Source of the DNA: an uncultured Actinomycetes bacterium
GTDB taxonomy: Bacteria; Actinomycetota; Thermoleophilia; Solirubrobacterales; Solirubrobacteraceae
DNA length: 64,000 nucleotides
NCBI GenBank assembly: GCA_963806015.1
Contig: CAWDWM010000008.1
Location: 57,337 to 121,336 of the forward strand
Direction: 5' to 3'
Position 1 is the first letter of the stretch; every line of letters starts with the position of its first letter. Under the pieces are notes generated by a model. That model was not told the origin of the DNA, made no database searches, and saw nothing but the letters and a program-made list of their open reading frames with translations. Positions 2,912-55,186 of this stretch are shown here, piece after piece. Both the position numbers and the translations under genes were made by a program.

Positions 2912-4035
2912 CGGCCCGCGCCGTCGCGCTCGCCGCCGTCGCGCTGGCGCTCGCCGCCTGCGGCGCCAAGCGCGAGCCCGCCGGCCCGCGGACCAGCGGT
3001 GCGGATGCGCACTCGACGGGCAGCCCGGCGGCGCGCGCGAACGCCGCGCTGACCGATGCCCAGCTCGCGGGCCAGCACGTCGTCTTTCCCTTCGCCGGGC
3101 GCACCCCGCCGCGCGCCCTGCTCGCGCGCATCCGCCGCGGCGAGGCCGCCGGGGTCATCTTCCTGGGCGCCAACCTCGGCACCCCCGGGCAGGTGCGCGC
3201 GCTCACGCGCGCGCTGCGGCGCGTCCCGCAGCCGCCCGCCGTCCGGGCGCCGCTGCTGCTGATGGTCGACCAGGAGGGCGGCAGCGTGCAGCGCCTGCCC
3301 GGCGCGCCGTCGCGCAGCGCCCCGGCGATGGCGGCGACGGGCCGTCCCGCGGTGGCACAGGCGGAAGGCCGCGCCACCGCGGCGACGCTCCGCGCGGCGG
3401 GCATGAACGTCGATCTAGCGCCGGTCGTCGACGTCGTGCGACCCGAGAGCGCGCTGCACGCCGAGGGCCGCGGCTTCGGGTTCGCCGCGACGAGCGCCGC
3501 GCGCTTCGGCGCCGCCTTCACCCGCGGCCTGCGCGCGGGCGGCGTGGCCGCCACGGCCAAGCACTTCCCGGGCTTCGGCGCGGCGCCGCGCAACACCGAT
3601 CTGGGCGCGGTGCGCATCGGCGTCGGGCTGCGCGAGCTGCGCGCGGTCGACCGCCCGCCGTTCGCGGCCGCCGTCCGCGCCGGTGCCGGCCTGGTCATGC
3701 TCTCCAGCGCGATCTACCCGGCGCTGTCGCCGGCGCCCGCGGTGCTCTCCCCGCGCGTGGTGCAGCGCGAGCTGCGCGACGGCCTGGGCTTTCGCGGCGT
3801 GACGATCTCCGACGACCTCGAGGCGCCCGCCTTCGCCCCGCGCGGCGGCGCGGCCGGCGCCGCGCTGGGCGCCACGCGCGCGGGGGTCGACCTGCTGCTG
3901 TTCGCGCGCACCTACGAGGGTGCCGACCGCGCGGCGCGGGCGCTGACCGACGCGCTGCGCTCCGGGCGCGTGGACCGCCGCGCGCTCCAGCAGTCCATGG
4001 CGCGCGTGCTCGCCCTGCGCGGCGCGTTGCGCTAG
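2908..4035 (+). CDS. glycoside hydrolase family 3 N-terminal-domain lipoprotein (NagZ-like beta-N-acetylhexosaminidase)
   Basis: GTG 2908 overlaps the upstream stop (GTGA). Lipobox LALAAC. GH3 motifs LLLMVDQEGGSVQRL and KHFPGFG are present. Confidence 0.8.
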   Translation: MTARAVALAAVALALAACGAKREPAGPRTSGADAHSTGSPAARANAALTDAQLAGQHVVFPFAGRTPPRALLARIRRGEAAGVIFLGANLGTPGQVRALTRALRRVPQPPAVRAPLLLMVDQEGGSVQRLPGAPSRSAPAMAATGRPAVAQAEGRATAATLRAAGMNVDLAPVVDVVRPESALHAEGRGFGFAATSAARFGAAFTRGLRAGGVAATAKHFPGFGAAPRNTDLGAVRIGVGLRELRAVDRPPFAAAVRAGAGLVMLSSAIYPALSPAPAVLSPRVVQRELRDGLGFRGVTISDDLEAPAFAPRGGAAGAALGATRAGVDLLLFARTYEGADRAARALTDALRSGRVDRRALQQSMARVLALRGALR

Positions 4036-4037
4036 CG

Positions 4038-4068
4038 GTCGCAACTGCGACTGCATCGCAGTTGCATG
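4038..4068. promoter_or_regulatory. palindromic operator-like site upstream of the DUF4331 operon
   Basis: Perfect 10-nt inverted repeat GCAACTGCGA (4041-4050) / TCGCAGTTGC (4056-4065) with a 5-nt spacer, about 110 nt upstream of ATG 4178. 20 of 27 aligned positions, with identical spacing, match the site at 8444-8470. Confidence 0.5.
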
Positions 4069-4177
4069 GCGCTCGCAGAAAGCGGCGGTTTGCAGGGAGA
4101 TTTATGTGATCCGTCGTTGCCTGCGCTGCGTCAAAGGGGGTTGTGATGACCCCAACCTCCCAAGGAGGAGCAGCTTC

Positions 4178-5674
4178 ATGCGAAAGCTCGCGATCCTGAC
4201 GGTGGCGCTGCTCGCGGCGCTTTCGGCAGGCGTACTCGCGGTTACTGCCGGCTCGGGTTCGAGCCACCGCGAAGCACCACTGTCAGCCCTCGACCCCACC
4301 GGCGACGACACCGACGTCTACGCCTTCGTGGCCCCCGACGCTCCAGGGTCCGTGACGCTGATCGGCAACTGGATCCCGTTCGAGGATCCGGCCGGCGGCC
4401 CGAACTTCTACCGCTTCGACGATCGGGCGTCGTACTACCTCAACGTCGACAACACCGGCGACGGCAAGTACGACATCCGCTACCGGTTCAAGTTCAAGAC
4501 CAAGGTCCGCAACCCCAACTCGTTCCTCTACGCGTTGCCGGGCGTCAGCTCGGTCAACGACCCCAAGCTCAACCTCGTGCAGACGTATTCGGTCTGGCGC
4601 GAGCGCTACGAGCGCGGCCATCAGGTGAGCAACAAGTTGGTGGCGAAGGGCCTGCCCACGGCGCCGAACAACGTCGGGCCCAAGACGTTCCCCAACTACG
4701 ACGCGGTCGCCAACCAGGCGATCAAGGGCCTGCCGGGTGGAGGCAAGGTCTTCGCCGGCCAGGTCGACGACCCCTTCTTCGTCGACCTCGGCTCGACCTT
4801 CGATGCCATCAACATCGACATGCCGGGCCGCATGGGCATCGGCACGGGCAACCAGGGCGGCGGCAAGGACGACCTCGCCGGCTACAACGTCCACACGATC
4901 GCCCTGCAGGTGCCGAAGTCCGATGTCACGCGCGACCACAAGACGCCGGCTGATGCCAAGGCCTCCGACGCCGTCGTCGGCGTGTGGGCCTCGACATACC
5001 GCCCGGTGCTGCAGGTCACCCGCCAGAGCCCGGTGGCCAGCGGGGCCACCTCCAGCGCGTCCCAGCGTGGGCAGCGGGTCTCCGACAACCACGGCGAGGG
5101 CCAGGTCAGCCGCCTCGGCAACCCGCTGGTCAACGAGGTGGTCATCCCGCTGGGTCAGAAGGACAAGTTCAACGCGACCCAGCCGTCCGACGACCTGAAG
5201 AACTTCGGCAAGTACGTGCTCTCGCCGGAGCTCGCGAAGGTCATCAACATCCTGTTCCCGGGTCTCAACGTCCCCGAGAACAACCGCACGGACATCGTGC
5301 AGGCGCTGCTCACGGGCATCCCGGGCCTGACCCAGATCGCCCCGGGCGCGCCCCCGACCGACACGCTGAAGATCAACCTCGGCGTGGTACCGAATCCGCA
5401 CCCGAGCCGCTTCGGCGTGCTCGGGGGTGACACCCAGGGCTTCCCGAACGGGCGGCGCCTGACCGACGACGTGGTCGACATCTCAGAGCGCGTCGTGGGC
5501 GGCTTCCTCAAGGGCAACAAGCTGCCCCTGGGCGATGGCGTGGACCAGAACGACAAGGCGTTCCGGACCTCGTTCCCCTACCTCGCCGCGCCGTTCGGCG
5601 GCTTTGACTCGCAGCTCAAGCGGACCGAGCCGGCGCACGCGCCGGTCCCGGGCGATCCCACCGGGTCCCGCTAG
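4178..5674 (+). CDS. DUF4331 domain-containing secreted protein
   Basis: ATG 4178 is preceded by AAGGAGGA (4162-4169). A signal peptide is followed by the family signature SSHREAPLSALDPTGDDTDVYAFVAPD...GGPNFYRFDD...YYLNVDNTGDGKYDIRYRFKF. Confidence 0.9.
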   Translation: MRKLAILTVALLAALSAGVLAVTAGSGSSHREAPLSALDPTGDDTDVYAFVAPDAPGSVTLIGNWIPFEDPAGGPNFYRFDDRASYYLNVDNTGDGKYDIRYRFKFKTKVRNPNSFLYALPGVSSVNDPKLNLVQTYSVWRERYERGHQVSNKLVAKGLPTAPNNVGPKTFPNYDAVANQAIKGLPGGGKVFAGQVDDPFFVDLGSTFDAINIDMPGRMGIGTGNQGGGKDDLAGYNVHTIALQVPKSDVTRDHKTPADAKASDAVVGVWASTYRPVLQVTRQSPVASGATSSASQRGQRVSDNHGEGQVSRLGNPLVNEVVIPLGQKDKFNATQPSDDLKNFGKYVLSPELAKVINILFPGLNVPENNRTDIVQALLTGIPGLTQIAPGAPPTDTLKINLGVVPNPHPSRFGVLGGDTQGFPNGRRLTDDVVDISERVVGGFLKGNKLPLGDGVDQNDKAFRTSFPYLAAPFGGFDSQLKRTEPAHAPVPGDPTGSR

Positions 5675-5764
5675 CACCCAATGCGACGGGCGGGCGGGGC
5701 ATCGCTGCCTCGCCCGCTCCGCGCTCTGCCGCAGCCAGCACCACTCCACCCGAGGCCACCACCC

Positions 5765-7045
5765 ATGCGCCGCATCCTCATCAGCTTCGTCGCGACCTTC
5801 GCCGTCGCGCTTGCAGTCTTCGTCCTCGCCGCGCGCGGCGGCTCGCCGCCCGCCGCCTCCGAGGCATCCGCCGCGCTGCCGCCCGCGCCGGCGCCCGATG
5901 CGTCCACGGATCAGCGCATCGGCGTCCTGCAGGCCACCGTCCGCGCCGCGCCCAAGCGCGGCGACGGCTGGACACTGCTCGCCGCCGCGTACCTGCAGAA
6001 GGTGCGCGAGACCGGCGACGCGGGCTTCTACACGCGCGCCCAGGGCGCCGTCGACCGGGCGCTCTCGCTGCGCCCCGCCGACCCCGGCGCGCTCACCGAG
6101 CGCAGCGCGCTCGAGCTCTCGCGCCACGACTTCCGGGCCGGCCTGCGCGACGCGCTGCGCGCTCGCGCGCTGGCGCCGACCGTGAACGCGCCGTTCGGCG
6201 CCGTCGTCGACGCGCTCGTCGAGCTCGGGCGCTACCCGCAGGCCGGCAGGGCGCTGCAGGAGATGGTCGATCGCAAGCCCAACCTGGCCGCCTACGCGCG
6301 CGTGTCCTACTTCCGCGAGCTGCACGGCGACCTCGCCGGCGCGCTGGCCGCCATGCGCGCGGCGGTGTCGGCCGGCGGCGCGGCGCCCGAGCAGGACGCC
6401 TTCGTGCGCTCGCTGCTCGGCGGCCTCGAGCTCCAGCACGGCCGCATCGACGCCGCGGTGCGCGAGTACCGCGGTGCCCTGGAGGCGATGCCGCGCTACG
6501 CGGCGGCCGAGGCCGGGCTGGCCCAGGCCGATGTCGCGCGCGGGCGGCTCGTCCCGGCCATCGCGCGCCTGCGGCGCGTCGTGGAACGCCTCCCGCTCGC
6601 GAGCTACGTCATCGCGCTGGGCGAGGCGCAGGCGGCCGCCGGACAGCACACGGCCGCGGCGCGGACGTTCGCCCTCGTGCGGGTGGAGACGATGCTCCAG
6701 CAGCGCGCCGGCGTCAACGCGGACGTCGAGCTGGCCCTCTTCGAGGCCGACCACGGCAGCCCGCAGCGTGCCGTGGCGCTCGGCCGCAGAGCCTGGGCGG
6801 CGGCTCCGAGCGTTCGCTCGGCCGACGCCCTCGGGTGGGCCCTGCACAGCGCAGGGCAATCGCGCGCCGCGCTCGGGTGGGCGCGGCGCGCGCTGGCCCT
6901 CGGCTCGCGGGACCCCGCCTTCCTGACCCATGCCGGACTGATCGCGCGCAGCGCGGGCGAGCCCGCCGTGGCGGCCCGCTGGCTGGCGCGGGCACGGACG
7001 GGCCGCGCGGCGCTGGGCGCCGGCCTGCGGGAGGCGCTGCGATGA
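5765..7045 (+). CDS. membrane-anchored tetratricopeptide-repeat protein
   Basis: Starts at the in-frame ATG 5765 (MRRILISFVATFAVALAVFVLAA, signal anchor). The rest is Ala/Leu/Arg-rich helical repeats of TPR type. The stop overlaps the next start (ATGA 7042-7045). Confidence 0.7.
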   Translation: MRRILISFVATFAVALAVFVLAARGGSPPAASEASAALPPAPAPDASTDQRIGVLQATVRAAPKRGDGWTLLAAAYLQKVRETGDAGFYTRAQGAVDRALSLRPADPGALTERSALELSRHDFRAGLRDALRARALAPTVNAPFGAVVDALVELGRYPQAGRALQEMVDRKPNLAAYARVSYFRELHGDLAGALAAMRAAVSAGGAAPEQDAFVRSLLGGLELQHGRIDAAVREYRGALEAMPRYAAAEAGLAQADVARGRLVPAIARLRRVVERLPLASYVIALGEAQAAAGQHTAAARTFALVRVETMLQQRAGVNADVELALFEADHGSPQRAVALGRRAWAAAPSVRSADALGWALHSAGQSRAALGWARRALALGSRDPAFLTHAGLIARSAGEPAVAARWLARARTGRAALGAGLREALR

Positions 7046-8436
7046 GGCGCCTGCTGCTGGTCTGCGTCGTGGCCCTGCTCGCGCTGGCCGCGCCCGCCGG
7101 CGCGCATCCGCTGGGCAACTTCTCGGTCAACCATCTCGCCGTGGTGCGGGTGTCCAGCGATCACGTCGACGTGCGCTACGTGCTCGACCAGGCCGAGATC
7201 CCGACCTTCCAGGAGCGCGGGCTGACGCCCGCGCGCGTGCTCGCGCGCAAGCGCGCCGACGTGGCGCGCGGCGTGACCCTGACGGTCGGGGGCCGGCCCG
7301 TCGCCCTGACCCTGCGTCCGGGCGGGCGCATCACGTTCCCCCGGGGCGCCGGGGGGCTGCACACCACCCGCGTGGAGGTGCTGCTGCGTGCGCAGGTGGC
7401 GCCCCGGGGGGCGGTCGTGGTGCGTGACGCCACGTTCGCCGGCCGCGCCGGCTGGCGCGCCGTGCTCGCCCAGCCCGGGCGCGGCACCGCCGTGCGCAGC
7501 GACGTGACGAGCGCGGACCCGACCCGCCGCCTGCACGTCTATCCGACGGCGCTGCTCGCGAGCCCCGCCGATCGCACCGTCGCCCATCTGCGCGTGAGTC
7601 CCGGGAGCGGGACGGTCACCGCGCCGCGCGGGGACGGCACGCAGGCGACGACGACCGACCGCGGGGCGGGCGACGGCTTCGGCTCGGTCTTCGAGCGCGC
7701 GGCCCAGGGGCAGGGCGTCCTGCTGCTGCTCCTGCTCGCCGCCTTCGGTTGGGGCGCGGTGCACGCGCTGTCGCCCGGGCACGGCAAGGCGATGGTGGCC
7801 GCCTATCTGGTCGGCGCGCGCGGCACGGCGCGCCATGCCGTGGCCCTCGGGGCGACGGTGACGATCACCCACACGATCGGTGTGTTCGCGCTCGGGGCGG
7901 TGGCGCTCGCGCTCTCGGCCTACGTGCTGCCCGAGCAGCTCTATCCGTGGCTGAACCTCGTATCGGGGCTGCTCGTGCTCGGCGTCGGGGCCTCGGTGGT
8001 GCGGGGGCGCGTGCGGCGCGCGCGGACGCCGGCCCATGAGCATCATCACGACCACGACCACGACCACGAGCACGGCCATGACCATGGGCACGGCCACCAC
8101 CATCACGACCACGCCGACCTGCGTCCGCGCGCGCTGCTGGCGATGGGAGCGTCGGCGGGGCTCATCCCCTGTCCTTCGGCGCTCGTCGTGCTCCTGGGCG
8201 CGGTGGCCCAGCACCAGATCGGGCTGGGCATGGTCCTCATCGTGGCGTTCTCCGCCGGGCTCGCCGCGACGCTCACCGGACTGGGCCTGCTGGTGGTGGC
8301 GGCCGGGCGGGTGTCCACGCGCCTGAGCGGCGCGCGGACGGGCCGCGTGCTCGCCGTGCTGCCCGCCCTGAGCGCGATCGCCATCGTCGGCGTCGGCCTC
8401 GCCCTGACCGCTCAGGCGGTGCCGAAGGTGCTCTGA
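7042..8436 (+). CDS. NicO/RcnA-like nickel/cobalt transporter with N-terminal extracytoplasmic domain and His-rich loop
   Basis: Signal peptide ...LAAPAGA/HPLGNFSVNHL, then a soluble domain of roughly 200 aa. The permease part carries HALSPGHGKAMVAAYLVG, plus the loop HEHHHDHDHDHEHGHDHGHGHHHHDH between TM helices, as in RcnA-type exporters. Confidence 0.8.
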   Translation: MRRLLLVCVVALLALAAPAGAHPLGNFSVNHLAVVRVSSDHVDVRYVLDQAEIPTFQERGLTPARVLARKRADVARGVTLTVGGRPVALTLRPGGRITFPRGAGGLHTTRVEVLLRAQVAPRGAVVVRDATFAGRAGWRAVLAQPGRGTAVRSDVTSADPTRRLHVYPTALLASPADRTVAHLRVSPGSGTVTAPRGDGTQATTTDRGAGDGFGSVFERAAQGQGVLLLLLLAAFGWGAVHALSPGHGKAMVAAYLVGARGTARHAVALGATVTITHTIGVFALGAVALALSAYVLPEQLYPWLNLVSGLLVLGVGASVVRGRVRRARTPAHEHHHDHDHDHEHGHDHGHGHHHHDHADLRPRALLAMGASAGLIPCPSALVVLLGAVAQHQIGLGMVLIVAFSAGLAATLTGLGLLVVAAGRVSTRLSGARTGRVLAVLPALSAIAIVGVGLALTAQAVPKVL

Positions 8437-8441
8437 ATTAC

Positions 8442-8471
8442 GTCCAACTGCGACTCGGTTGCAGTTGCGAC
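8442..8471. promoter_or_regulatory. second copy of the operator-like palindrome, upstream of Fur-family gene 1
   Basis: GTCCAACTGC-GACTCGGTT-GCAGTTGCGAC. Arms CAACTGC/GCAGTTG are separated by 9 nt. The site lies 8 nt after the transporter stop and about 35 nt before GTG 8505. The right arm is the exact reverse complement of the left arm of the 4038 site (GTCGCAACTGC). Confidence 0.5.
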
Positions 8472-8504
8472 AGGCCCGCGCTACGGTCGCCGGCGGGCCG
8501 CATC

Positions 8505-8948
8505 GTGACCGTTTCACGCCTGACTCCCGCCGTCCAGGCCGAGACTCCCGCCGCCGCGGCAGCGGCTCTGCGGGCACGGGGCCTGAGGGTGTCGAGCGCG
8601 CGGCGCGAGCTGCTCGAGGCGCTGTACGCCGCCGAGCGGCCGCTCAGCGCGGACGAGCTCGCCGGCGGCGGCGACGTGGCCTCGGCGTATCGCAACCTCG
8701 AGGTGCTCGAGGACGTCGGCCTCGTGCGCCACGTCCATCTCGGCCACGGCCCCGGCCTCTATCACCCCGCCGGCCTCGAGCGTGAGTTCGTGGTCTGCGA
8801 GTCGTGCGGCGCCGTGCGCGCCGTCGCGCCCGCCGAGCTCGACGACGTCCGCGCGGCGGTGCACGACGCCGTCGGCTACCGCGCGCGCTTCACCCACTTC
8901 CCGCTCGCGGGCCTGTGCCCGGCGTGCGCGGCGAAGGGCGACGGATGA
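8505..8948 (+). CDS. Fur family transcriptional regulator (copy 1; Ni/Co-responsive Nur-like role inferred from context)
   Basis: Winged-helix N-terminus (SARRELLEALYAAERPLSADEL), the metal-site region HVHLGHGPGLYH, and CxxC pairs (CESCG, CPAC). GTG start. The stop overlaps the NiCoT start (ATGA). Confidence 0.8.
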   Translation: MTVSRLTPAVQAETPAAAAAALRARGLRVSSARRELLEALYAAERPLSADELAGGGDVASAYRNLEVLEDVGLVRHVHLGHGPGLYHPAGLEREFVVCESCGAVRAVAPAELDDVRAAVHDAVGYRARFTHFPLAGLCPACAAKGDG

Positions 8949-10040
8949 TCGCGCGCGCCCGCGGCGCGCTCAGCCCGGCCGAGTGGATGCGCGCGGGCTG
9001 CCTTGCCGCCGCGGTCCTCGGTCTGCACGTCGTCGGCTTCGGCCTGCTGTTCGGGTTCGTGGTCCCGCATCACTTCAGTCTCGGGGCGGGCGGTGCGTTC
9101 ACTGCCGGGGTGGGCCTGACCGCGTACACGCTGGGGATGCGCCACGCGTTCGACGCCGACCACATCGCGGCGATCGACAACACGACGCGCAAGTTCATGG
9201 GCGAGGGCCAGCGGCCGCTTGAGTGTCGGGTTCTTCTTCTCGCTGGGGCACTCGACGGTCGTCTTCGTCCTCGCGCTGCTCTTCGCGCTCGGCGTCCGCG
9301 CCCTGGCCGGCGACGTGCAGAACGATGGCTCGACGCTGCACACGGTCACCGGGCTGATCGGGACGGGCGTGTCCGGCACCTTCCTGTACCTGATCGCGGC
9401 GCTGAACCTGGTCGTGCTGGTGGGGATCGTGCGCGTCTTTCGCGACATGCGCCGCGGCGTCTACTGCGAGGATCAGCTGGAGGACCTGCTGCAGTCGCGC
9501 GGGCTGATGAACCGCTTCCTGGGCCGTTTCACCAGCGCGGTGCGCAAGCCGTGGCAGATGTATCCGCTGGGGATCCTCTTCGGGCTGGGGTTCGACACCG
9601 CGACCGAGGTGGCGCTGCTGTTCCTGGCCGCCGGCGCCGCGGGGGCGGGGCTGCCGTGGTACGCGATCCTCTGCCTACCGGTGCTGTTCGCGGCCGGCAT
9701 GTCGCTGCTGGACACGATCGACGGCTCGTTCATGAACTTCGCCTACGGCTGGGCCTTCTCGCAGCCCGTGCGCAAGGTCTTCTACAACATCACGGTGACC
9801 GGCCTGTCGGTGGCGGTCGCCCTCGTCATCGGCACGATCGAGCTGCTCTCGATCGCCGTCGAGCGCCTCGACCTGACGGGCGGCTTCTGGTCGTGGGTGG
9901 CCGGGATCGACCTCAACGCCGTGGGCTACATCGTGGTCGGCCTGTTCGTGGCGACCTGGGCGGTCGCGCTCGCCGTCTGGCGCTTCGGGCACCTCGAGGA
10001 ACGCTGGGCGCTGCCGGCGCCGTCGCGCGAGCGCGCCTAG
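8945..10040 (+). pseudogene. NiCoT (HoxN/NixA/NhlF family) nickel/cobalt permease, copy 1, interrupted by a +1 frameshift
   Basis: The N-terminal 91 codons sit in the frame of ORF 8804..10207 and carry the NiCoT signature RHAFDADHIAAIDN. The remainder is in ORF 9219..10040. Copy 2 reads ccgctgagcgtc where copy 1 reads ccgcttgagtgtc (extra t at 9219-9220). Confidence 0.85.
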
Positions 10041-10177
10041 CTCGCGTCGGGCCGAACTGCATCACCGAGGGGAGGAAGTCAGCAGCGGTCGGGGCGCCGG
10101 CGACTCCGCGGGGCGCGTGCATCGGGCACAGGTCGCGCGCCTTTCGAACGCCTCTCAAAGTGTCACGAGGGGGGTGG

Positions 10178-10212
10178 GCTGCATTAGCGAAGCATGCGTT
10201 CGCTTAAGCAGC
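10178..10212. promoter_or_regulatory. imperfect 35-nt inverted repeat in the lower-GC spacer between the two modules
   Basis: GCTGCATTAGCGAA-GCATGCG-TTCGCTTAAGCAGC. 12 of 14 outer positions pair and the centre contains the palindrome GCATGC. Whether it acts as a terminator, an operator or an RNA element is unknown. Confidence 0.3.
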
Positions 10213-10448
10213 ACACCCCTGTGGCCGGCGGCTGAATGTGTTGCGAGATGCACGCGAACTGCGCAGAAGCTGCGCGCCCGCGGAGCCCGCCCGCGCCCCG
10301 ACCGCCGGTAACTCCTCACCGTCGGTGAGCAGTTTGAGCCGCGCGTGGCGTTCTCGGAAGGTCGCAGTGATCCGCTCCTACAGGTCGTGCGCAATAGCAC
10401 CCAGAACGCGCCATGCGGGTGGGGCGCTCGACCAGGAGGAGAACTCTC

Positions 10449-10889
10449 GTGACCGTCCCTCACCTCATCCCTGCGATGGAGGCGTCGACCGCCCCTGCCG
10501 CCTTCGCCGCTGTTCGCGCCCACGGCCTGCGCCTGTCGTCCGCACGGCGCCTGCTGCTGCAGGCGCTCTTCGACGCCGACCGGCCGCTGAGCGCCGAGGA
10601 GCTCTCCGGCGATGGCGACGTGGCCTCGGCCTATCGCAACCTCGAGGTGCTCGAGGGCCTCGGGCTCGTCACCCACGTCCACCTCGGCCACGGCCCAGGG
10701 CGCTACCAGCCGGCCGGCCGGCCGCGCGAGTTCGTGGTGTGCGAGCGCTGCGGCGACGTCTCGCCGCTGTCGGCGGACGCCGTCGGCGCGGTGCGCCTGG
10801 CCGTGCTCGACGCGCTCGGCTACCGCGCGCGCTTCACCCACTTCCCCCTCGCCGGGGTGTGCCCGGTCTGCGTCTCGGAGGACGACTGA
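10449..10889 (+). CDS. Fur family transcriptional regulator (copy 2)
   Basis: Paralog of 8505..8948 (VTVPHLIP... versus VTVSRLTP...; shared DVASAYRNLEVLE, HVHLGHGPG, GYRARFTHFPLAG). GTG 10449 was chosen by alignment to copy 1. The ORF is open from 10413. Confidence 0.8.
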   Translation: MTVPHLIPAMEASTAPAAFAAVRAHGLRLSSARRLLLQALFDADRPLSAEELSGDGDVASAYRNLEVLEGLGLVTHVHLGHGPGRYQPAGRPREFVVCERCGDVSPLSADAVGAVRLAVLDALGYRARFTHFPLAGVCPVCVSEDD

Positions 10890-11983
10890 TGCTGACCCGC
10901 CTGCGCGCCTCGTTGAACCCGGCCGAGTGGGGCCGCGCCGGGGGGCTTGCCGCCGCCGTCATCGGCCTGCACGTCGTCGGCTTCGGGCTGCTGTTCGGCT
11001 TCGTCGTGCCGCATCACTTCAGTCTCGGGGCGGGCGGTGCGTTCACGGCCGGCGTCGGCCTCACGGCCTACACGCTGGGGATGCGCCACGCGTTCGACGC
11101 CGACCACATCGCGGCGATCGACAACACGACGCGCAAGTTCATGGGCGAGGGCCAGCGGCCGCTGAGCGTCGGGTTCTTCTTCTCGCTGGGGCACTCGACG
11201 GTCGTCTTCGTCCTCGCGCTGCTGTTCTCCGTCGGCGTCAAGGCGCTGGCCGGACCCGTAGGGGACGGCGGTTCCAGCCTGCACTCGGTCACCGGGCTGA
11301 TCGGGACGGGCGTGTCCGGCACCTTTCTGTACCTGATCGCGGCGCTGAACCTGGTCGTGCTGGTGGGGATCGTGCGCGTCTTTCGCGACATGCGCCGCGG
11401 CGTCTACTGCGAGGATCAGCTGGAGGACCTGCTGCAGTCGCGCGGGCTGATGAACCGCTTCCTGGGCCGTTTCACCAGCGCGGTGCGCAAGCCGTGGCAG
11501 ATGTATCCGCTGGGGATCCTCTTCGGGCTGGGCTTCGACACCGCGACCGAGGTGGCGCTGCTGTTCCTGGCCGCGGGCGCCGCGGGGGCGGGGCTGCCGT
11601 GGTACGCGATCCTCTGCCTACCGGTGCTGTTCGCGGCCGGCATGTCGCTGCTGGACACGATCGACGGCTCGTTCATGAACTTCGCCTACGGCTGGGCGTT
11701 CTCGCAGCCCGTGCGCAAGGTCTATTACAACATCACCATCACGGCGCTCTCGGTGGCCGTGGCGCTGCTCATCGGCACCATCGAGCTGCTCTCGATCGCG
11801 GCCGACAGGCTCAGCCTCGACGGAGGCTTCTGGTCGTGGGTGGCCGGGATCGACCTCAACGCCGTGGGCTACATCGTGGTCGGCCTGTTCGTGGCGACGT
11901 GGGCGGTGGCGCTCGCGGTCTGGCGCTTCGGGCGCCTGGAGGAGCGCTGGGCGTTGCCCGGCTCGGCTCCGGAGAGCGCGTAG
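10889..11983 (+). CDS. NiCoT (HoxN/NixA/NhlF family) nickel/cobalt permease, copy 2, intact
   Basis: ATG 10889 overlaps the Fur stop (TGATG). The 364-aa product carries RHAFDADHIAAIDN, FFFSLGHSTVV and LGFDTATE motifs and about 8 TM helices. Confidence 0.9.
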   Translation: MLTRLRASLNPAEWGRAGGLAAAVIGLHVVGFGLLFGFVVPHHFSLGAGGAFTAGVGLTAYTLGMRHAFDADHIAAIDNTTRKFMGEGQRPLSVGFFFSLGHSTVVFVLALLFSVGVKALAGPVGDGGSSLHSVTGLIGTGVSGTFLYLIAALNLVVLVGIVRVFRDMRRGVYCEDQLEDLLQSRGLMNRFLGRFTSAVRKPWQMYPLGILFGLGFDTATEVALLFLAAGAAGAGLPWYAILCLPVLFAAGMSLLDTIDGSFMNFAYGWAFSQPVRKVYYNITITALSVAVALLIGTIELLSIAADRLSLDGGFWSWVAGIDLNAVGYIVVGLFVATWAVALAVWRFGRLEERWALPGSAPESA

Positions 11984-54363: not shown

Positions 54364-55186
54364 CGCAGGTCAACGGCGTCGAGCTCTGCGACGAGACGTT
54401 CGGCGCGCGGGCCGACCCGCCCGTCCTGCTCATCATGGGGGCGGCCGCTTCGATGGACTGGTGGGAGGACGACTCTTGCGAGCGCCTGGCGGCGGACCCA
54501 CGGTTCGTCATCCGCTACGACCACCGCGACACGGGCCAGTCTGTGAGCTATGCGCCGGGCGCCCCGGGATACACGGGCGATGATCTGATCGCCGACGCCA
54601 TCGGGGTGCTCGACGCGCTCGGCGTGGACAGGGCGCACGTCGTGGGCCAGTCGATGGGCGGGGCTCTCGCGCAGGTGATCGCGCTCGAGCATCCCGGGCG
54701 TGTCGCCTCGCTCACGCTCATCGCCACCAGTCCGGCGGGCCCGGGCGAGCCCGACCTCCCGGACATGACCGCCGAGGGGCGTGCCGCCTTCACGCAGGTG
54801 ATGGAGCCCGACTGGTCGGACCGCGCAGCGGTGATCGACTACGCGACGGAGCTCTCGCGCGCCTGCGCGGGCCGCTCGACGAGCGCGGAACGCGCGCGCT
54901 GTGGGAGCGCATGCTGGACCGCACGACCAACATCGAGTCGAGCATGAAGAACCACTACGCGACGGAGGGCGGCGGCCGCTGGCGCGAGCGCCTCGCAACG
55001 CTCGTCATGCCGGCGCTCGTCGTTCACGGCACCGAGGACCCGATGTTCCCCGTCGCGCACGGCGAAGCGCTGGCGCGCGAGATCCCCGGCGCCGAGCTGC
55101 TCGTCCTGGAGGGATCGGGCCACGAGCTGGCGCGACGCGATTGGGACGTCGTGGTGCCGGCGATCCTGCGCCTCACGCGGTCCTAG
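54318..55186 (+). pseudogene. alpha/beta hydrolase with one apparent -1 frameshift
   Basis: Frame 1 carries PPVLLIMGAAASMDWW...HVVGQSMGGALA (nucleophile elbow GxSxG)...DYATELSRACAG. Frame 2 continues PLDERGTRALWERMLDR...VVHGTEDPMFP...GSGHEL. A base appears to be missing near 54868-54874. The start is uncertain. Confidence 0.65.

Follow-up and report, generated by a model that had tools for sequence, protein, structure and literature searches.

We analyzed a stretch of 64,000 nucleotides (nt) of DNA from an uncultured bacterium of the Solirubrobacteraceae (contig CAWDWM010000008.1, positions 57,337 to 121,336 of the forward strand), hereafter the window, which contains a three-gene operon encoding a secreted protein of the DUF4331 family, a tetratricopeptide repeat (TPR) protein and a metal permease. 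The genes, promoter motifs and linker given below with window coordinates lie on its forward strand, and the regulatory boxes are given without strand. We consider it very likely that palindromes in front of this operon and of the regulator gene that follows it serve as operators of the Nur type, bound by Nur-like regulators of the Fur family encoded just downstream, and that the DUF4331-TPR-permease operon, the nur-nicT genes and, in relatives, nikMNQO form one nickel-responsive regulon; the operon would be transcribed from a promoter of the extracytoplasmic function (ECF) type, probably read by a SigK/RskA-like pair encoded at 640-1844. Nickel-responsive control of the operon by a Nur-type regulator, as read from the sequence, is well supported. 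The explanation as a whole, which joins this regulon to a model of activation and export, has in our judgment an even chance of being right.

The operon is built as the original prediction described it, with genes for DUF4331 (4178-5674; Pfam PF14224, 7.7e-132, profile positions 1-421 of 421), a membrane-anchored TPR protein (5681-7045; Pfam TPR_19, 1.6e-7) and a NicO-type permease (7042-8436), the last two of which overlap in an ATGA at 7042-7045. The true start of the TPR gene is probably the ATG at 5765, and tblastn matches in relatives begin near residue 27-31. The predicted perfect 10+10 inverted repeat, GCAACTGCGA/TCGCAGTTGC, was present at 4041-4065, where it begins a few bases past the stop codon of a GH3 gene and lies 113-137 nt 5' of the DUF4331 ATG (4178). 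Searching the window for CAACTGC-N9-GCAGTTG without mismatches yielded exactly two copies, at 4042-4064 (site 1) and 8445-8467 (site 2), where the chance expectation is 0.13 even with up to two mismatches; allowing three mismatches gained one more, unrelated site. Site 2, the second copy that had been claimed to share the spacing of the first, begins 8 nt past the operon stop (8436) and ends 37 nt ahead of the GTG start codon (8505) of a Fur-family gene. Over 31 aligned positions, sites 1 and 2 share 20 identical bases.

A single palindrome had been proposed upstream of DUF4331, and instead we found a tandem array. Using a symmetrized position-weight matrix of the box (consensus TTGCGA-N5-TCGCAA), we scored box 1, CTGCGA-CTGCA-TCGCAG at 4045-4061, at 18.0; it forms the core of site 1 and holds a conserved position 62 nt before the start of the -35 element. 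Box 2, TTGCAT-GGCGC-TCGCAG at 4062-4078 (score 13.0), follows 17 bp after box 1, and is conserved in 33 loci of the comparison described below. The same 33 loci define the consensus of a third unit, gAAag-N7-TTTGCAGG, which in the window reads AAAG-N7-TTTGCAG (4079-4095) and of which the right half-site alone is conserved, and that of the T-rich linker between the array and the -35 element (4096-4106), a.tTTTatg. At site 2, the core is a box reading CTGCGA-CTCGG-TTGCAG (8448-8464; score 18.6), followed by a weak second unit (8465-8481; score 9.0). This box overlaps a possible housekeeping-type promoter, TTGCAG-17 nt-TACGGT at 8459-8487, read from the sequence and below the threshold of a consensus promoter scan; the consensus sigma-70 scan found no promoter at either palindrome. 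No site of strength comparable to sites 1 and 2 precedes the second Fur-family gene (10449-10889), for which the best box match is a degenerate one at 10378-10394 (score 7.7). An Rfam scan of the whole window at gathering thresholds returned no matches, which indicates that the cluster leaders contain no known riboswitch. The matrix also matched a weak box-like site, TTTCGAACGCCTCTCAA, at 10142-10158 (score 12.0) within the 400-nt gap that separates NiCoT copy 1 from the second Fur-family gene, which additionally holds an inverted repeat at 10171-10219 with 21-nt arms that are 86% complementary, and two positions distant from the cluster, 54982-54998 (score 12.7) and 54476-54492 (score 11.0).

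We compared the window with 82 related loci, all from Thermoleophilia (83 with the window). The trio of DUF4331, TPR protein and NicO fusion was found in every related locus with a long enough contig; a Fur-family gene directly follows it in most, and a NiCoT gene comes next in only a minority. Two of the loci that carry the cluster belong to cultured bacteria, Svornostia abyssi J379 (L020) and Solirubrobacter soli DSM 22325 (L035). What the relatives keep of the palindrome is the inner CTGCGA-N5-TCGCAG, a 6-5-6 motif of the form yTGCGA-N5-TCGCAr, and the outer arms at the DUF4331 site (GTCG/CAAC...GTTG/CGAC) vary even among relatives whose DUF4331 is 95-97% identical. Of the consensus put forward originally, the inner arms CTGCGA/TCGCAG were thus conserved and the outer arms were not, and we rejected the 11-N9-11 consensus, which is specific to the window, as a family motif because the outer arms change in such close relatives. 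We counted 21 copies of the perfect 15-mer TGCGA-N5-TCGCA in 1.2 Mb, all but one (20) of them no more than 230 nt upstream of a DUF4331 gene, a density of 1.04 per kb there versus 0.0008 per kb elsewhere, or an enrichment of about 1000-fold. The tandem array precedes DUF4331 in 33-41 of the 83 loci, and 33 loci align column by column as cTGCGA-N5-TCGCAs, yTGCga-N5-tCGCAg and AAAG-N7-TTTGCAGG, followed by the T-rich stretch.

Boxes also accompany the regulator genes. A box with a score of at least 10 lies upstream of 25 of the 49 linked Fur genes, and the box of site 2 is conserved at -56 to -58 before the first Fur copy in four relatives (L003, L004, L005 and L014). The published Nur box, tTGCaa-N5-ttGCAA, has a 6-5-6 design (PMC2691836), and our consensus matches it in that layout and in the positions of TGC and GCA. 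Thermoleophilaceae boxes at Fur genes approach the Streptomyces consensus, and one of them (L042) is an exact TTGCAA-CCTAC-TTGCAA, which overturns the earlier view that the motif is unlike the Streptomyces Nur box. Of the 58 loci that allowed a judgment, 41 have both a box ahead of DUF4331 and a neighboring regulator gene and 14 have neither, with 1+2 discordant cases (Fisher p = 1.7e-10, uncorrected for shared ancestry). Taken together, the enrichment, the boxes at 25 of the 49 Fur genes and this co-occurrence bear out the proposal that the palindromes are operators of adjacent Fur-family regulators.

The regulators themselves resemble Nur. The window encodes two, nur1 (8505-8948; Pfam FUR, 4e-9) and nur2 (10449-10889; Pfam FUR, 2.3e-8), the leader of the latter matching those of L001 and L002. 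Nur of Streptomyces coelicolor (3EYY) is the closest solved structure to the nur1 product (2e-17). The nickel-site residues His70, His72 and His126 of Nur are kept in 49 of 49 cluster-linked homologues, both window copies included, as are the DNA-contact residues Tyr56 and Arg57 and both CxxC motifs. These three histidines are reported solely in Nur orthologues (PMC2691836). The linked regulators are, on this comparison, Nur-like.

The operon appears to possess an ECF-type promoter, a feature that the original prediction overlooked together with a nearby sigma/anti-sigma pair. About 70 nt before the start codon of nearly every DUF4331 gene stands a motif of the form TGATCC (or ACATCC/ACAACC)-N16-CG(T/A/C)A, which in the window operon reads TGATCC-N16-CGTC (4107-4132). 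Across the 82 loci and the window, the strict motif, when it has a ribosome-binding site and an open reading frame behind it, occurs almost solely before DUF4331, nur, nikM (as in L060) and ECF sigma genes (as in L055 and L078). The window carries two further instances. TGATCC-N16-CGCA lies before nur2 (10368-10393), with the degenerate box in its spacer that scores 7.7 here and 11.8 in L004, L005 and L014, and ACAACC-N16-CGTA (614-639), conserved in L003, L004, L005 and L014, lies directly before an ECF sigma factor gene (640-1260; Pfam Sigma70_r2, 5.4e-15, and Sigma70_r4, 2.7e-14). The start codon of the sigma gene is very near this motif, and a leaderless transcript may result. An RskA-type anti-sigma factor gene follows at 1257-1844 (Pfam RskA_C, 3e-14).

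This pair lies 3 kb upstream of the window operon, and comparable pairs adjoin the operon in L055 and L078; on a Pseudoalteromonas plasmid a pair stands directly ahead of the DUF4331 cluster. In L055, the promoter motif precedes an ECF sigma gene that is accompanied by an RskA-type anti-sigma gene and is divergent from DUF4331, and the window sigma factor is 34% identical to this L055 protein, which was the one compared rather than mycobacterial SigK. In L060 (5011-6695), CbiM/NikM and PDGLE-CbiQ genes upstream of nur-DUF4331 are preceded by TGATCC-N16-CGCA, whose spacer holds a box of the Nur type, TTGCGGGCCTCTCGCAA (score 16). The conserved leader GTGATCCG...GCGAA had also been considered as an RNA element, and this candidate was dropped in favor of a promoter because the N16 spacing is fixed and the element is likewise present ahead of ECF sigma genes. 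Past the promoter motif, some 60 nt ahead of the DUF4331 start, leaders of Thermoleophilaceae (L039, L040, L042, L044, L048, L050, L052, L054, L056 and others) contain a conserved GGCCAGTGAGTGCCCGGG...CCCTGGCCC that could fold into a hairpin, and L051, L057, L059, L062 and L074 have a different hairpin, GGAGGC...GCCTCC, at the same place.

Both DUF4331 and the permease have a predicted mature N-terminus that carries histidine. In 82 of 83 loci, the signal peptide of DUF4331 ends as x-x-(G/S/A) directly before SSHREAP, in line with what had been proposed for the window protein. Proteins from other phyla have A-x-A before the mature start, which is SDH in Nostoc, and Ser28 and His30 are invariant across phyla. 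Mature DUF4331 is thus predicted, from the sequence pattern of the cleavage site, to start X-X-His. This is the pattern of the amino-terminal Cu/Ni-binding (ATCUN) site, with histidine at position 3 and no proline at position 2. Sequence and profile searches of the PDB found no match for DUF4331, and a fold search of the PDB with its AlphaFold2 (AF2) model (51 sequences; mean predicted local distance difference test score, pLDDT, of 53) returned nothing better than E=0.08.

The permease is a fusion of a signal peptide (7042-7104), an outer domain beginning with histidine (His1; 7105 to about 7716) and an RcnA/NicO-type core with the HxxxPGHxK motif. As had been noted, the core is of the NicO type (Pfam NicO, 5.7e-12, 46 bits versus a cutoff of 27.7) and contains a central His/Asp loop, HEHHHDHDHDHEHGHDHGHGHHHHDH (about 8029-8109), which is also found in orthologues from Nostoc and Streptomyces. 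The RcnA model PRK10019 of NCBIfam matches with 3.5e-33 at 115 bits versus a curated cutoff of 195. The mature start predicted earlier, HPLGNF, is matched by the pattern AxA|HPLGNF(S/T)(V/I)N in the NicO-type permeases of 68 of 68 loci, Streptomyces and Nostoc included, where cleavage is again predicted; a signal peptide ending in A-x-A and then histidine was seen in every permease examined, HupE/UreJ-2 proteins included.

The outer domain had no Pfam or PDB match by sequence, and its profile found no PDB chain, 9GCE included. At E<=1e-3, its family comprises 2178 representative clusters, and NicO is present in 36 of 55 long members. The AF2 model of the permease has a mean pLDDT of 61 overall; within the outer domain, block means range from about 50 to 92 and are highest in predicted strands. 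With this model, the top Foldseek match of the outer domain is 9GCE (E=2.1e-5, probability 1.0, template modelling score 0.46), followed by the zinc chaperones ZrgA and PA4063. The 9GCE structure is the copper-bound Ang-1 domain of a HupE/UreJ-2 protein; the His1 beta-sandwich domains Ang-1 and Ang-2 bind Cu2+ (Kd 74 nM) and Ni2+ (220 nM), and such 'anglerases' are proposed to capture metal and feed the permease (PMC12537917). By its predicted fold, the outer domain studied here may be an anglerase-like domain on a different permease family. No profile-profile match connected it with the outer domains of DUF4331-linked HupE/UreJ-2 proteins, and those domains showed no sequence match to 9GCE. 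In four family members of 625-738 residues (P0278, P0280, P0283 and P0295), the His-tipped outer domain starts at residue 410-460 behind an extra fused part, and a set-wide Pfam summary at E<=0.001, which shows NicO, DsbD_2 and SfLAP only, identified none of that extra part.

We also asked where the trio occurs outside Thermoleophilia. A protein search of plasmid records gave 36 matches, of which 14 contexts were examined, and in 8 of the 14 DUF4331 is followed by a TPR gene and then a permease with an N-terminal extension of 180-250 residues. This gene-neighborhood census agrees with the expectation that DUF4331 keeps company with nickel/cobalt permeases. The eight contexts comprise two from Streptomycetaceae, two from Nostoc and one each from Marinobacter, Pseudoalteromonas, Lichenicola and the Comamonadaceae, and span Actinomycetota, Cyanobacteriota and Pseudomonadota. 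The permease is NicO-type in the first two of these phyla and HupE_UreJ_2 in Pseudomonadota. The TPR genes are often labelled 'hypothetical', and Pfam gives TPR in all five that were examined, if only weakly in the one from Lichenicola. Based on these contexts and the Thermoleophilia loci, we conclude that DUF4331, TPR protein and permease are a conserved trio, predicted to be extracytoplasmic, in several phyla. Two of the 14 contexts have DUF4331 and TPR without a permease. The remaining four, on Rhodobacterales plasmids (L089, L090, L093 and L094), have DUF4331 among type II secretion genes, adjoining an A24 prepilin peptidase and with no TPR or permease gene, and DUF4331 may there be a secreted substrate of the type II system. 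Other neighbors include a fasciclin-domain (Mpt83-like) gene after the permease in Streptomyces anulatus (L083, 11241-11894), a class F sortase between DUF4331 and TPR on a Streptomycetaceae plasmid (L095, 6794-7537), whose DUF4331 ends in an anchor-like C-terminal tail, and, in Adhaeribacter (L091, 2128-4392), a TonB-dependent receptor ahead of a DUF4331 protein of 806 residues.

The position of the boxes relative to the promoters bears on the direction of regulation. At DUF4331 promoters, the boxes begin 62 and 45 nt before the start of the -35 element, the half-site ends 11 nt before that element, and no box was found inside the promoter spacer. At nikM and nur2-type promoters, the box begins 10 nt after the -35 start and covers the spacer and the -10 element, and at nur1 it overlaps the weak housekeeping-type promoter. 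Because the box lies upstream of -35 at DUF4331 and in the spacer at nur and nikM, the two kinds of unit may be regulated in opposite senses, and the original proposal that a single repressor controls both is left unproven by this difference in position. In line with the broader proposal of a nickel/cobalt role outside the cytoplasm, the comparison of loci links DUF4331, its TPR partner and the His-tipped permease to a predicted role in nickel handling outside the cell.

We lean, at a confidence just short of even, toward a model in which nickel-loaded Nur activates the operon and the operon serves outward transport or the loading of DUF4331. At nur and nikM, the box inside the spacer would let nickel-loaded Nur repress; at the DUF4331 operon, the array 11 nt upstream of -35 would let it activate, as zinc-loaded Zur does at zitB in Streptomyces, and the operon would be switched on when nickel is available. 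The RcnA-type permease would export Ni(II), its cleaved N-terminal histidine domain would take up the ion, the TPR protein would act as a scaffold, and the ion would arrive on the Ser-Ser-His N-terminus of secreted DUF4331, which would either load this protein with metal or hold exported nickel outside the cell. We favor activation and export because of the contrast between the upstream array and the spacer boxes, the Zur-zitB precedent, and the RcnA-like core, which has a His-rich loop. That the trio is conserved one-to-one-to-one in different phyla would fit an arrangement of client, chaperone and metal supplier. A more detailed version of the model, which we think unlikely to hold in full, casts DUF4331 as a secreted metalloprotein that receives nickel on its Ser-Ser-His once outside the cell: the RcnA-type exporter would hand the ion to its own N-terminal histidine domain, the membrane-anchored TPR chaperone would present the client, and a Nur-type switch would turn the system on from the array upstream of the ECF promoter. 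Cytochrome c maturation also employs a TPR chaperone with a DsbD-clan membrane protein, and the loading of DUF4331 would resemble it in this respect. If true, this version would tie a SigK/RskA-type ECF system to metal handling.

Several points weigh against the explanation as a whole. We infer metal specificity, DNA binding and the direction of transport from the sequence. The assignment of TGATCC-N16-CGTC as an ECF-type promoter derives solely from motif sharing, and the transcript start is likewise an inferred one. Iron-uptake genes, too, classically pair a Fur-type operator with an ECF promoter, and regulators on an array upstream of -35 are able to repress as well, by spreading cooperatively. 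Cu(II) is bound by His1 and ATCUN sites no less well than Ni(II). The score of the permease with the RcnA model falls below the curated cutoff, and HupE/UreJ relatives and the products of the neighboring NiCoT and NikM genes are importers. The M-site of Nur, a second metal site formed by His33, His86, His88 and His90, is replaced by R/G/A, E, E and F/Y in 49 of 49 homologues, which suggests that metal sensing may differ from that of Nur. Mutation of His88 or His90 abolishes DNA binding by Nur, whose known role in S. coelicolor is to repress nickel uptake genes (PMC2691836). Furthermore, the one role proposed in print for permease-borne His1 domains is to capture metal for uptake (PMC12537917).

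These last points lead into the strongest rival, which we regard as possible and doubtful. It retains the same regulator and operators in the opposite sense, with nickel-loaded Nur repressing the operon: under nickel limitation, DUF4331 would capture Ni(II), the TPR protein would dock it, and the His1 domain would 'angle' the ion into an importing permease. Uptake of this kind would follow the proposal for the His1 beta-sandwich domains on HupE/UreJ-2 permeases, which bind Cu2+/Ni2+ (PMC12537917) and to one of which, 9GCE, the predicted outer domain matches with E=2.1e-5, as well as the repression of nickel uptake genes by S. coelicolor Nur (PMC2691836). The operon also clusters and shares its operator with genes of importer types, NicT and NikM/CbiM, and the arrangement resembles iron-uptake genes under joint Fur and ECF control. 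The TonB-dependent receptor (Adhaeribacter), sortase (Streptomycetaceae) and type II secretion genes (Rhodobacterales) that adjoin DUF4331 fit a surface or secreted scavenger. However, boxes never overlap the -35 or -10 of DUF4331 but do so at nikM and nur in the same genomes. The permease core is RcnA-like, and we know of no characterized importer of the RcnA type. Nickel is released slowly from an ATCUN site, which counts against uptake, and 14 loci retain the operon with the ECF promoter only, without Nur or a box, which is hard to square with the sensing of starvation.

We find it quite improbable that the metal is copper or another metal rather than nickel, with regulators that respond to this other metal or with a purely positional link to nickel genes. 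ATCUN and histidine-brace sites favor Cu(II), and the regulators lack the Nur M-site. [quoted passage not shown] Nevertheless, the three Nur-specific histidines are kept in 49 of 49 regulators, the box also precedes NicT-type and NikM/CbiM-type genes, the permease families of the trio (NicO and HupE/UreJ) are nickel/cobalt types, and no CopA, CopC or CsoR was seen beside the cluster in the loci examined. The weakest rival, that the palindromes are RNA hairpins terminating the upstream genes or repeated extragenic elements rather than operators, takes its appeal from the closeness of site 1 to the GH3 stop and of site 2 to the operon stop, and is hardly credible given that no T-tract follows either site, that a scan of 3950-4200 and 8380-8560 found no intrinsic terminator-like site, that relatives keep the half-sites in sequence but are free to vary in the 5-bp spacer (the pattern of a protein site and not of a compensating stem), that the spacing from the array to the downstream promoter is constant, be the upstream gene GH3, an M42 peptidase or another, and that the motif is all but absent from the rest of 1.2 Mb.

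Downstream of the operon, each nur gene is paired with a NiCoT gene. The predicted translational coupling of nur1 to NiCoT copy 1 (8945-10040) was found as an ATGA overlap at 8945-8948, and the transporter gene is present, but its reading frame is broken by an extra T near 9219, which splits the tblastn match into frames +1 and +2. The sequence there reads CTTGAG (9215-9222) versus CTGAG in copy 2 (11160-11166), and this 1-nt insertion may reflect a pseudogene or a homopolymer error of long-read assembly. Copy 2 (10889-11983), an importer of the NicT type (NCBIfam NicT NF052500, 8.1e-171, above cutoff), is intact. Copy 1 is absent from L003 and intact in L004, L005 and L014. The nur1-nicT1 unit appears to have been inserted between the permease gene and nur2, perhaps with later gene conversion of the transporter, because the two NiCoT proteins are about 90% identical and the two Nur proteins about 70%, and because nur2 is the ortholog of the regulator found behind the permease gene in the majority of relatives. 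Many relatives have, after nur, a gene not for NiCoT but for a 225-residue protein with only a weak NicO match (L001, 14933-15610; L002, 14714-15391).

Among characterized systems, Nur is the nearest to the regulatory part. The regulators have it as their best solved match (3EYY, 2e-17) and share its His70, His72 and His126, its Tyr56 and Arg57, and both CxxC motifs; the boxes share its 6-5-6 layout with TGC and GCA at the same positions, and both count nickel importer genes (nikM type, NicT) as targets (PMC2691836). The systems differ in that the M-site histidines His33, His86, His88 and His90 are all replaced here, that the half-site is yTGCGA rather than tTGCaa in Solirubrobacteraceae, and that the boxes are repeated in tandem every 17 bp ahead of an ECF-type promoter. 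In addition, the DUF4331-TPR-permease target is not listed among those of Nur (PMC2691836). For the array, the closest likeness is Zur at zitB of S. coelicolor, where additional palindromes stand upstream of a Fur-family box that is 8 nt from -35 (PMC9371925; PMC5472717), which resembles our array a few bases upstream of -35. There, metal-loaded Zur activates the exporter gene and represses importers (PMC5472717; PMC9371925), an outcome that in our case is only inferred. The Zur system responds to zinc and not nickel, uses a 7-1-7 rather than a 6-5-6 box and a housekeeping rather than an ECF-type sigma factor, and activation is suggested here by geometry only.

Similarly, the permease shares features with two systems and matches neither. 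Like Ang-1 and Ang-2 (PMC12537917; 9GCE), it has a signal peptide followed by an invariant histidine and a predicted beta-rich outer domain on a permease of a nickel/cobalt family, and a conserved acidic residue lies about 30 positions past His1 (Asp28/Glu31 here, Asp33 in Ang-2). In contrast to these proteins, its core is RcnA/NicO-type (NicO/DsbD_2) with a His-rich loop and not HupE/UreJ-2 (Pfam 13795), its outer domain has no detectable sequence similarity to Ang-1, and the fusion always occurs with DUF4331 and TPR, partners that the anglerase study does not discuss (PMC12537917). The nickel/cobalt efflux protein RcnA of E. coli, which has a periplasmic partner, RcnB, resembles our permease in the core, with HxxxPGHxK and a central His-rich loop, and in being encoded together with an extracytoplasmic protein. 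However, our permease has an added signal peptide and 200-residue outer domain, its partners are DUF4331 and TPR rather than RcnB, its regulator is of the Fur family rather than RcnR, and its RcnA score is below the cutoff. The sigma/anti-sigma pair recalls SigK/RskA of mycobacteria, in which an ECF sigma gene precedes that of an RskA_C anti-sigma factor and a promoter motif is common to the sigma gene and putative targets (PMC7509140), and the fasciclin gene beside the DUF4331 cluster on a Streptomyces plasmid is Mpt83-like. No metal link is known for SigK, whose published regulon comprises mpt70/mpt83 and the sigK locus (PMC7509140).

In the literature searched, DUF4331 is not discussed, and its sole mention is a line with a count of 2 in a source-data table (PMC12537917). 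Searches on 'Nur regulon' or on HupE/UreJ with tetratricopeptide found nothing relevant. The association of DUF4331 with TPR, the tandem array on an ECF-type promoter and the link of DUF4331 to nickel thus appear not to have been addressed in that literature, while the operator and regulator are further members of the Nur kind and the permease is a variation on the anglerase idea. DUF4331, a large and widespread family that has so far been without a function, gains a concrete and testable context: a trio that recurs across phyla, a predicted Cu/Ni-binding N-terminus, a His-tipped permease, and a nickel-type regulator and operator in Thermoleophilia. The data suggest a possibly new layout in which a Fur-family array is combined with an ECF-sigma promoter, possibly working as Zur does at zitB. 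If our interpretation is true, the anglerase idea would extend from HupE/UreJ-2 to RcnA/NicO-type permeases, and Nur-type regulation, known from Streptomyces, would also reach a deep actinobacterial class. Thermoleophilia are abundant in soil, most of them uncultured, and how they acquire or dispose of nickel bears on nickel enzymes, among them hydrogenases and urease.

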